Shown: positions 3,001 to 5,023 of the stretch, in pieces
Position numbering within the stretch: the first letter of the stretch is position 1
Layout: each line of letters begins with the position of its first letter
IMG/VR virus record: IMGVR_UViG_2690316115_000011
Span: 1-10,655 of that record
Direction: 5' to 3' (one strand)
Length of the DNA stretch: 10,655 bases
DNA from: a virus
Taxonomy: Duplodnaviria; Heunggongvirae; Uroviricota; Caudoviricetes
Made by a program: the position numbers

Positions 3001-5023
3001 CATTGACTGATTTTGTCTGCCCGCATCTGGTACATAATTTTGATTGAAGGTCCTTAATGATTGTGACGTTTCCTTCCCGCTTGGGATATCCATATTTTTT
3101 GTAGCGTAAAAAGGTTACTCCGTTACCAGAACCTTCTTTTCTGACCTTAAATACAATGATGCTTTCCCGTTTATCGATAAAATCTATGAGCTGGTTTCTC
3201 TCCTTTCCTGACAGTTCGGCAAATGTCTTAACTTTTTTAGTAACTTCCGTAAGGCGAACTCCATCAGGCATTTTTTCAACGAAGTTTTTAATCTCTGCAA
3301 GCGGACGCCATAACTTTTGCGGCAAAACTGAAGGCGTGGTCATCAATCACCTCGCCGTCAGTTGTTTTGATTTCCGGTAGCCTGCCGCGTAAATGGCTAC
3401 GTTTGGAAGACATACACCAGTTTCTGGTTGCTTATGTCCAAACTCATTCGCGTACACAATGGCTGCTCGCTCCAGATTGTGTCTGTATTCTTTCTGTTGC
3501 CAGATCACGTCCTGTGCCATGAACTTAATTGGCTTAGCGTCTTCTATGCGCTCAGGCGTTTCGTGAGTACCTTTAGCCTGAATCTGCGCTCTGCTTAGAG
3601 TAGGGCGGTGTAATACTTCTGAACTTATTGCTTCTTCGCGGGCCAGCACGCCGTTAGCTAATGCCTTTGCCTTTAAACGCTCACGACGACGAGAACGTGA
3701 ATTGCCTTTGAACTGAGTTCTGCGTGTCATATAGACCTCCTGATGAACTTTGGTGGTGTGGTAGGTGGGAGACCCATTTCGACCTGTTTCGGCCTACTTC
3801 AATTCGGCAATAGTCCCGCAGGCCTCGCCGCTTTACGTGCGACATATTCCCGTCCATGAACCCTTCACCACACCCCAAAGTTCACTTTGGTTATTGCGCT
3901 TTGTCAGCGCCGTAGATTCATATTTGAATCGTTGTATATTCACCGCCCTGGTGAGTAGTGCGTCCTGCTGATGTGTTTAGTATCACCGCCAGTGGTATTT
4001 ATGTCAACACCGCCAGAGATAATTTATCACCGCAGATGGTTATCTGTATGTTTTTTATATGGATTTATTTTTTGCAGGGTTGAGTGGCTTGGGAGGTGAT
4101 CGAGAGATCTGAATTGCGATGTTTAGTGAGTTGTATCTATTTATTTTTCAATAAATACATTTGGTTATGTGTCTTTAGGTGGGGGGGTGAGGCAAAGAAA
4201 ACCCGGCTCTGTGGCCGGGAATAACATTTAGGAATCAAGGTCAGGTAGCATGATTTTCTCAATCAACGTCAATGCCCTTTGGTCTCGTTCAGCAAAATAT
4301 TTAGGAGCGTACTGAGGCAGCCACACTTCGTTGAAGTGTTGTTTGAAATCTGCAAGATATTCGTTTGGGTATAGACGTACCGGGAATGTCCGGCCATCTG
4401 GGTACTCATGGTTATATGTTGGGAATGTCTTCGGCTCAACCCCCCGGTTGTCACGGAGCCATTGCGAGAAAACCCTACCCTCTGAAATATCAGGGACCAT
4501 TTTTTCTGGCAGCGTATATCCGGCCTGTTCAAGTGGCGCAACCAAGTTAAACGTCAGTTCATTAAGCATAGAAAAGTGCGTATGAGGAACTCTGCCTCGG
4601 TTTGTCATATACCGCTTAAGGTGGATAGGGAGTTCGGCAGGCGCTCTTTCACCTGACATCCACTCACGCACCCATCTCGATACTTGCACTGCAAATTTTG
4701 GAGATAGCCACTGAGCTAAATTAATTGCGATGTCTGGATGAACCCAAGTCCCTTGATTCTCTGCTCTTCCGCCTTTAAATGATTGAATTAACTCCGATAT
4801 GGGAATCCCCATATCGCGTGATAATTCATCAAAAAAATCTTGTGTTGTTTTTAGTCGTGTATAGTCAGCAAGTAGCTTCCCCGCAGACTTGCACATCGCG
4901 GTGGCATTGATGTATCCGTCTTTGGTGCGAAGATGGATGACTTCTCCATCAACTTCTCTAGCGATTAATGCAAGTTGAAACTGTGTCATAAATCATCCTA
5001 TTACGTGAAAAATAAAACAATCA

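Follow-up and report, generated by a model that had tools for sequence, protein, structure and literature searches.

A KilA-N gene with a BstA-like C-terminal domain and an internal covarying palindrome in the rex slot of a lambda-immunity prophage

Genes and control sites of the immunity region

The DNA analysed here, called the window throughout, is a stretch of 10,655 nt from an Escherichia coli prophage (IMGVR_UViG_2690316115_000011, Caudoviricetes), and coordinates are window positions unless another sequence is named. Between its lambda-type cI repressor gene and its leftward operators, in the slot that lambda fills with rexA and rexB, the window carries a single open reading frame of 253 aa, referred to here as the ORF. 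Judged by its sequence, the encoded protein is a distant relative of BstA, an abortive-infection (Abi) protein of prophages, in a separate branch with a canonical KilA-N domain. In our view the ORF probably encodes a BstA-like Abi system made of one protein, a moron that this lambda-immunity prophage carries in its immunity operon.

In order to map the junctions, the window was aligned with lambda (NC_001416) by BLASTN. Two blocks of similarity flank the ORF, one from 3940 to 4219 at 89% identity whose end lies one base short of the rexB stop codon, and one from 5020 to 6049 at 96.7% identity that starts one base before the cI stop; no lambda similarity was detected by BLASTN between the two (4220-5019). 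At this place 1401 bp of lambda, comprising the cI-rexA spacer, rexA and rexB, are swapped for 800 bp in the window. The operators OL1-3, OR2 and OR3 are exactly those of lambda and OR1 (5792-5808) has one mismatch, TACCTCTAGCGGTGATA, while PRM can be placed within the OR region by analogy with lambda. A sequence-only reading of this DNA had described cI, the operators and the spacer from OL3 to the terminator as lambda-like, with the similarity stopping at the cI stop codon and resuming at the terminator hairpin, and the alignment and the operator comparison bear this description out, breakpoints included. It had also reported a single ORF of 253 aa on the cI strand, 31 nt after cI and with its own AGGA Shine-Dalgarno sequence. 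Every one of these details proved correct, and the terminator scan agreed with its placing of the ORF stop 8 nt short of the tImm hairpin at 4219-4202. On the minus strand between cI and the ORF, the scan of the window found no promoter-like or terminator-like site, and the ORF is presumably driven by the cI promoters. The features are collected in Table 1.

Table 1. Features of the immunity region, of the ORF and of the two palindrome copies in the window
Feature	Position	Strand	Remarks
OL1-OL3	3979-4041		PL at 4007-3979 (-), found by promoter scan
tImm-type intrinsic terminator	4192-4219	-	Stem 4219-4202 (6-bp G+C hairpin) followed by a T-run; common to lambda
ORF	4228-4989	-	253 aa, ATG start; KilA-N domain and BstA-like C-terminal domain
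BstA-like C-terminal domain	4279-4632	-	aa 120-237
KilA-N (APSES-type) DNA-binding domain	4654-4953	-	aa 13-112
In-gene palindrome	4795-4816		22 bp, CGATATGGGGATTCCCATATCG, 9-bp arms; ORF codons R57-S64, KilA-N region
cI-ORF spacer	4990-5020	-	31 nt; Shine-Dalgarno AGGA at 4999-4996, 6 nt 5' of the ATG
cI repressor, lambda-type	5021-5734	-	237 aa; T3A and K71N are the only differences from lambda cI
OR3-OR2-OR1	5745-5808		PR at 5782-5810 (+), found by promoter scan
Free-standing palindrome	10624-10645		Perfect, CGATATGGGAATTCCCATATCG, 11-bp arms; nin region

Domain composition of the ORF protein

The protein is RefSeq WP_000191544.1, which is named only 'KilA-N domain-containing protein', and the gene is annotated in RefSeq and GenBank as 'KilA-N domain-containing' or 'hypothetical'. 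The N-terminal domain is a canonical Pfam KilA-N match (E = 8e-27) and agrees with KilA-N in sequence profile as well as with a fold of the APSES type; PHROG 129, 'transcriptional regulator', covers the same domain. With Pfam at E ≤ 1, in a copy that does not include PF26567, KilA-N is the only domain found in the ORF, no ANT/KilAC or Bro-N domain being present, and a search of NCBIfam gave no matching model. Hydrophobic stretches in the protein do not exceed 5 residues.

In the case of the C-terminal half, several comparisons lead to BstA. With the PADLOC BstA model, residues 120-237 give a match at E = 2.5e-20, and BLASTP aligns residues 133-251 with BstA of Salmonella phage BTP1 at 29% identity (E = 5e-15). 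Profile-profile comparison of the ORF family with the BstA family by hhalign gives a probability of 98.2% and E = 3e-14 over 110 columns. Furthermore, precomputed matches to Pfam PF26567, the UniRef name of which is 'BstA-like C-terminal domain', exist for homologues of the ORF that are 86-87% identical to it as well as for homologues of BstA. Finally, PHROG 6287 ('BstA abortive infection system, replication inhibitor') matches the ORF end to end with E = 1.8e-82 and also takes BTP1 BstA (E = 2e-150) and the BstA of E. coli O178 (E = 6e-133). Among solved structures and those of BFVD the C-domain has no confident relative, and the BFVD matches of the ORF to antirepressor C-domains all have E > 0.5. 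The assignment of the N-terminal 110 or so residues to a KilA-N (APSES-type) domain in the sequence-only reading is confirmed by Pfam, and of the two routes that it proposed for the C-terminal half the profile comparison led to a BstA-like C-domain and the fold search returned nothing confident.

Relation to published BstA systems and to other cargo of the slot

In BTP1 the gene for BstA lies just downstream of that for the cI repressor, and lysogens express it at a high level (Owen et al. 2021, PMC8585504). The protein is a KilA-N-like Abi protein encoded immediately downstream of prophage repressors, and it stops phage DNA from replicating and so brings about abortive infection; the E. coli and Klebsiella homologues, which are about 40% identical, are functionally interchangeable (PMC8585504). 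BTP1 protects itself by means of aba, a DNA element of 63 bp between -29 and +34 of the gene which needs the CCCGCC direct repeats at its ends, and each BstA homologue has its own cognate element (PMC8585504). Direct repeats around the start codon can indeed be seen in BTP1 (CCCGCCA at -28 and +28) and in the bstA gene of E. coli O178 (ATCCCT at -34 and +23).

One of the BstA homologues catalogued by Owen et al., that of E. coli O178:H19 2012C-4431, is as long as BstA-Ec and shares 42% identity with BTP1 BstA. The cI of this strain differs by one residue from that of the window, and the similarity between the two sequences ends and resumes around the BstA gene at exactly the same two junctions. 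Since this homologue shares both the slot and the junctions, a BstA-type gene in the rex slot of a lambda-immunity prophage is an arrangement that has already been published. The discussion in PMC8585504 also draws attention to the synteny of BstA with rexAB and describes the interval between cI and N as a hotspot. The kind of system and its place in the slot are thus known, and the novelty implied in the sequence-only reading is unsupported, as BstA, its position downstream of cI, the rexAB synteny and the hotspot are all in that paper. What is new is a distinct and widespread KilA-N/BstA-C branch, for which the PADLOC BstA model gives only a partial match; this branch is without the BTP1-type aba signature and has a covarying palindrome in its coding sequence.

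The idea that the cI-proximal slot is a hotspot was well founded, as both PMC8585504 and the varied cargo show. Indeed, in lambda-immunity phages and prophages the cI-to-OL slot is occupied by rexAB, hicAB, NYN, PIN, P63C, DUF1828 or unnamed genes. At least seven unrelated cargos were seen in complete E. coli genomes, among them rexAB, P63C-domain, NYN-domain and PIN-domain proteins, DUF1828 with a hypothetical gene, pairs of hypothetical genes and the KilA-N gene. Other cargo of this slot is described by Degnan et al. 2007, as cited in PMC8585504.

Distribution and mobility of the gene

An identical protein is encoded by Escherichia phage PhiR5_2, whose DNA is 99.9% identical to the window across 3900-6100 and on which no literature was found. 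Relatives with 80-87% identity occur in three E. coli siphophages and one Proteus phage. Among 5426 complete E. coli genomes the gene is present in 139 (about 2.6%); the identity is at least 96% in 22 of these carriers and the full lambda-immunity arrangement is found in 18. A paralogue of 257 aa (WP_000200358, 78% nucleotide identity), called here the nin-type paralogue, accounts for 117 of the 139 carriers and outnumbers the version of the cI slot. Its gene runs antisense within the nin region, with DUF977/DUF551 genes on one side and hokD on the other, and is carried by E. coli prophages and by phage vB_EcoS-673R7.

Beyond these close relatives the family has approximately 2700 detectable members. 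Proteins with 53-60% identity were found in Proteobacteria, Verrucomicrobiota, Bacteroidota, Spirochaetia, Nitrospirota, Armatimonadota and candidate phyla, and 56 positions distributed over the whole protein are invariant among 36 diverse members. No conserved partner gene was detected, the most frequent flanking ORF family being common to at most 9 of 80 loci. The gene therefore travels alone, a point that the sequence-only reading had raised as a question.

The gene also behaves as a mobile unit. A cassette of ~860 bp (4191-5047/5053), made of the cI 3' end, the ORF and the terminator, recurs at 94-96% identity after another cI of the LexA family in E. coli DY612 and after an XRE repressor in E. 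coli H6. In both strains 27-33 nt of the lambda-type cI 3' end (CAGTGGCCAGATGATACGTTTGGGTGA) are left as non-coding DNA between the resident repressor and the ORF, at 3763-3830 of the H6 locus and upstream of 3762 of the DY612 locus. In view of this remnant, the cassette moves as a unit bounded by the 3' end of cI on one side and, as its right border, by the tImm terminator on the other. The order of repressor, ORF and terminator is the same in the Proteus phage, DY612 and H6, and members of the ORF family are located behind the cI of the Proteus phage as well as in the nin region. The H6 gene is apparently disrupted, its annotation being split into two ORFs (3001-3342 and 3421-3762 of that locus).

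A covarying palindrome in the KilA-N coding region

A search of the window for repeats paired 4784-4824, within the ORF, with 10613-10653, near the window end. Each of the two segments holds a palindrome (Table 1). That of the ORF is a variant with a GGGATTCC centre, compared with the perfect variant in the nin region. The nin-type paralogue carries the perfect 22-mer at the same codons as the ORF, and over the surrounding 60 nt the two genes have only 2 differences.

To survey the position of such elements, palindromes with arms of at least 9 bp were sought inside the gene at 80 genome loci. This yielded 34 in-gene palindromes, 28 of which are located at the codons of the window palindrome, and related palindromes are met with at these codons in homologues from different phyla. 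Moreover, the arms vary and covary between homologues, and in doing so they change the amino acids on both sides of a G-I-P turn: CGATATGGGAATTCCCATATCG encodes DMGIPIS, CCGAAACGGGAATTCCCGTTTCGG ETGIPVS, CGTTATGGGAATTCCCATAACG VMGIPIT, CGATGTCGGAATTCCGACATCG DVGIPTS and AGGTCTGCGGGAATTCCCGCAGACCT RSAGIPADL. In one homologue the arms are 17 bp long.

The covariation was quantified on 47 distinct codon-aligned segments and 14 pairs, with shuffles and with partners slid by 1-3 columns as controls. Among the palindrome cells 73.4% form a pair, compared with 28-43% when the partners are slid. Cells changed on both sides number 61 versus 27.5 ± 4.0 in the shuffles, none of 500 of which reaches 61, and the covariation score is 0.242 versus at most 0.079 with slid partners. 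The third position of the Pro codon, which is synonymous, covaries with the residue two codons upstream (GC 25, CG 14). The centre of the dyad is symmetric across homologues as well, with compensatory GGT-ATA-CC variants, and mismatches of the G-T (9) and A-C (11) kinds are of equal frequency. Given that the centre is kept symmetric and that the two kinds of mismatch are equally frequent, a symmetry of double-stranded DNA is favoured, and the reading of the palindrome as an RNA hairpin is disfavoured.

The palindrome is absent from the family subgroup of the TGLPEQQLIH type and from the BstA genes proper, and it is found in KilA-N genes without a BstA C-domain, including genes on giant-virus contigs. 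Owing to this distribution we ascribe it to the KilA-N lineage and not to the BstA C-domain. No description of it, or of palindromes of KilA-N genes, was found in the searchable literature. It is maintained in evolution and is a candidate cognate DNA site, and there is about an even chance that it is bound by a protein, most simply by the KilA-N domain. Because the arms encode residues that flank the G-I-P turn of the DNA-binding domain, such a site and its reader would diversify together.

Copies of the palindrome outside the gene

The free-standing copy at 10624-10645 (context 10590-10655) lies just after an ORF of 51 aa and upstream of hokD, as seen in strain ML35. It occupies the spot of the nin-type paralogue of other prophages, approximately 36 nt of which remain, and since the flanks are partly alike it clearly derives from a copy of the gene. 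Together with its flanks it was found in 628 of the 5426 E. coli genomes, with identities of at least 99%, as would be expected of a single origin or of one successful module; for this reason the nin-region copy alone says little about selection.

In order to look beyond this copy, three 16-mer cores were scanned in viral contigs, the sites were classed as inside or outside KilA-N ORFs, and the distinct outside contexts were examined for extension as a perfect palindrome by at least 3 bp, for which ~1 in 64 contexts is expected by chance. The core TATGGGAATTCCCATA has 119 sites, 38 in KilA-N ORFs and 81 outside, and 23 of 35 outside contexts are extended. For AACGGGAATTCCCGTT, 21 of the 61 sites are in KilA-N ORFs and 40 outside, with extension in 13 of 27 contexts, and for TATCGGAATTCCGATA the 80 sites divide into 39 and 41, with extension in 19 of 36 contexts. 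Extension is far above chance and many of the free-standing copies are therefore real elements. Some free-standing AACGGGAATTCCCGTT sites are flanked by an A-run and a T-run, and these may be no more than bidirectional terminators.

The surroundings of BstA-type homologues present a different picture, as the 80 genome loci show a single site, located inside the gene, and no extra copy within 4 kb. One phage type carries a KilA-N gene of 188 aa (Pfam E = 4e-17) which has a family palindrome at gene nt 174, that is at the same offset, and two more family palindromes 33 bp apart in the upstream intergenic region. The pair looks like an operator layout. This intergenic region is shared with an upstream hicA toxin gene and a neighbouring ORF on the opposite strand (L238 2809-3400; also L253 and L259).

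Other observations in the window

Compared with lambda, the Cro protein of the window has the changes M12I and V55I. The repeat search also gave a repeat of 70-90 nt with the palindrome GGGTTAACCC, in three copies (6534-6602, 6624-6693 and 7367-7459). Two copies lie between cII and an O-like replication gene (6724-7800) and one within that gene, and they are probably origin iterons of the replication module of the window. No Rfam family reached the gathering threshold anywhere in the window.

Proposed function and alternatives

The sequence-only reading had put the ORF forward as a candidate single-gene exclusion or abortive-infection module, and the homology to BstA gives support to this proposal, the role itself being one that we infer. 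In a BstA-like Abi system the protein would be idle in the lysogen until a heterologous phage begins replication. The KilA-N domain would then recruit it to the replicating foreign DNA and the BstA-type C-domain would block phage replication there, so that the infected cell would die without releasing progeny, by analogy with the BstA proteins of BTP1, E. coli and Klebsiella. More speculatively, the prophage may spare itself on induction by way of a DNA element acting in cis, for which the in-gene palindrome is a candidate, and free-standing copies such as that of the nin region may serve other lambdoid phages as decoys for escape. The combined proposal, that the GGAATTCC-centred palindrome is the cognate site of the KilA-N domain, an aba-like self-identity tag which spares the DNA that bears it and, in its free-standing form, a decoy, is a tentative one that we hold to be rather doubtful.

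Several observations weigh against a BstA-like function. The alignment with BstA at 29% identity involves the C-domains alone, the N-domains being aligned neither by BLASTP nor by hhalign, and the ORF and its paralogue cover the PADLOC BstA model only at 149-271 of 292 (~42%) whereas BTP1 BstA and E. coli BstA cover the whole of it, at 412 and 351 bits. A fold search of the C-domain in BFVD gave no match at E ≤ 0.001. Direct repeats of the aba type were looked for at the start of the ORF and rejected, no direct repeat of at least 6 bp being present in -90..+90, with the proviso that the aba signature is itself provisional, as it was mapped in BTP1 only. Moreover, an identity of 53-60% across phyla is atypical for a defence gene and could reflect another role, transcription of the ORF with cI from PRM/PRE and its end at tImm are deduced from the operon structure only, and no experimental work on this branch was found in the searchable literature.

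Three other explanations of the ORF were considered. The protein could defend the lysogen in a manner unlike BstA, with the KilA-N domain acting as a sequence-specific repressor or roadblock on GGAATTCC-centred palindromes of incoming phage DNA, which it would silence, and with exclusion taking place without abortive infection. This would agree with a covarying palindrome family that is tied to KilA-N genes, with the free-standing copies in phage genomes and with the operator-like pair of sites upstream of the KilA-N gene of one phage type. However, the high conservation of the BstA-like C-domain, together with the 56 invariant positions over the protein, points to an effector beyond DNA binding, and BstA-type genes have their single site in the gene and none in the 4-kb flanks; we regard such a mechanism as unlikely. 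It is likewise improbable that the ORF is a lysogeny-linked regulator of prophage or host transcription with no anti-phage role. Although KilA-N/APSES is a DNA-binding fold, a palindrome in the protein's own gene could be an autoregulatory site and the very high conservation across phyla would fit a housekeeping-like regulator, the ORF has its C-domain, architecture and slot in common with BstA, for which Abi activity has been demonstrated (PMC8585504). Furthermore, it has no conserved neighbouring genes that could be its targets, and it moves as a moron between unrelated prophage backbones.

KilA-N domains are also known from phage proteins that resemble antirepressors or kill the host. The ORF might for this reason be a lytic-cycle gene, an antirepressor or a Kil-type host-killing protein, which merely lies near cI, and the match of PHROG 129 'transcriptional regulator' to its N-domain is in line with these members of the domain family. 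This we consider very unlikely: Pfam detects no ANT/KilAC or Bro-N domain, the gene is part of the leftward immunity unit between cI and the terminator and has no promoter of its own, the position of the terminator shields it from PL, and an antirepressor that is co-transcribed with cI would destabilise lysogeny.

With the ORF read as a BstA-like Abi gene, a gene of the rex slot that is now labelled only 'KilA-N domain-containing' or 'hypothetical' is explained as a prophage defence gene of the BstA type. Since it combines a canonical DNA-binding domain with a short, perfectly symmetric and covarying in-gene DNA element, the branch offers a cleaner handle on what BstA recognises and on how aba works. 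If the palindrome is indeed the cognate site, this would lead to a simple model, open to testing, of how prophages spare themselves and how phages escape by way of decoy sites.

Comparison with known systems

The same replaceable slot and the same flanks are found around gp48/49 of HK97, hicAB of mEp234 and the NYN protein of ev099, the proteins of which are unrelated to the ORF. RexA-RexB of lambda, an exclusion function expressed in the lysogen, is the system to which the role of the ORF can be likened, as both are in the same genomic slot, before the same terminator and with the same presumed transcription with cI from PRM/PRE. RexA-RexB consists of two proteins, compared with a single ORF, and there is no sequence similarity between the systems. 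RexB is a membrane protein, whereas the ORF protein is without a long hydrophobic stretch and has a DNA-binding domain. As for the domain itself, the ORF differs from the N-terminus of P1 KilA and from yeast Mbp1 in that its KilA-N domain is fused to a BstA-type C-domain, with no ANT or Bro domains.

Compared with aba, the palindrome of the ORF is also a short DNA element inside the locus of the defence gene, and its sequence varies between homologues, so that it could be cognate to each, a relation that has been shown for aba and would apply to the palindrome by inference. The two differ in structure, aba being an element of 63 bp with terminal direct repeats across the start of the gene and the palindrome a 22-bp inverted repeat at nt 174-195 of the ORF gene.

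BstA is the closest of the known systems, in spite of clear differences. The ORF protein has 253 aa as opposed to ~300 aa in BstA, its N-domain is a canonical Pfam KilA-N match while BstA proteins have none, and its gene contains the internal palindrome that BstA genes proper lack. On the other hand, both are single-protein prophage modules immediately 3' of the repressor, in the same orientation and followed by a terminator of their own. Both combine an N-terminal domain of the KilA-N type with a homologous C-domain (PF26567) and fall into the same PHROG 6287, and in E. coli BstA is found in the very same lambda-immunity slot, between the same junctions, as the ORF.

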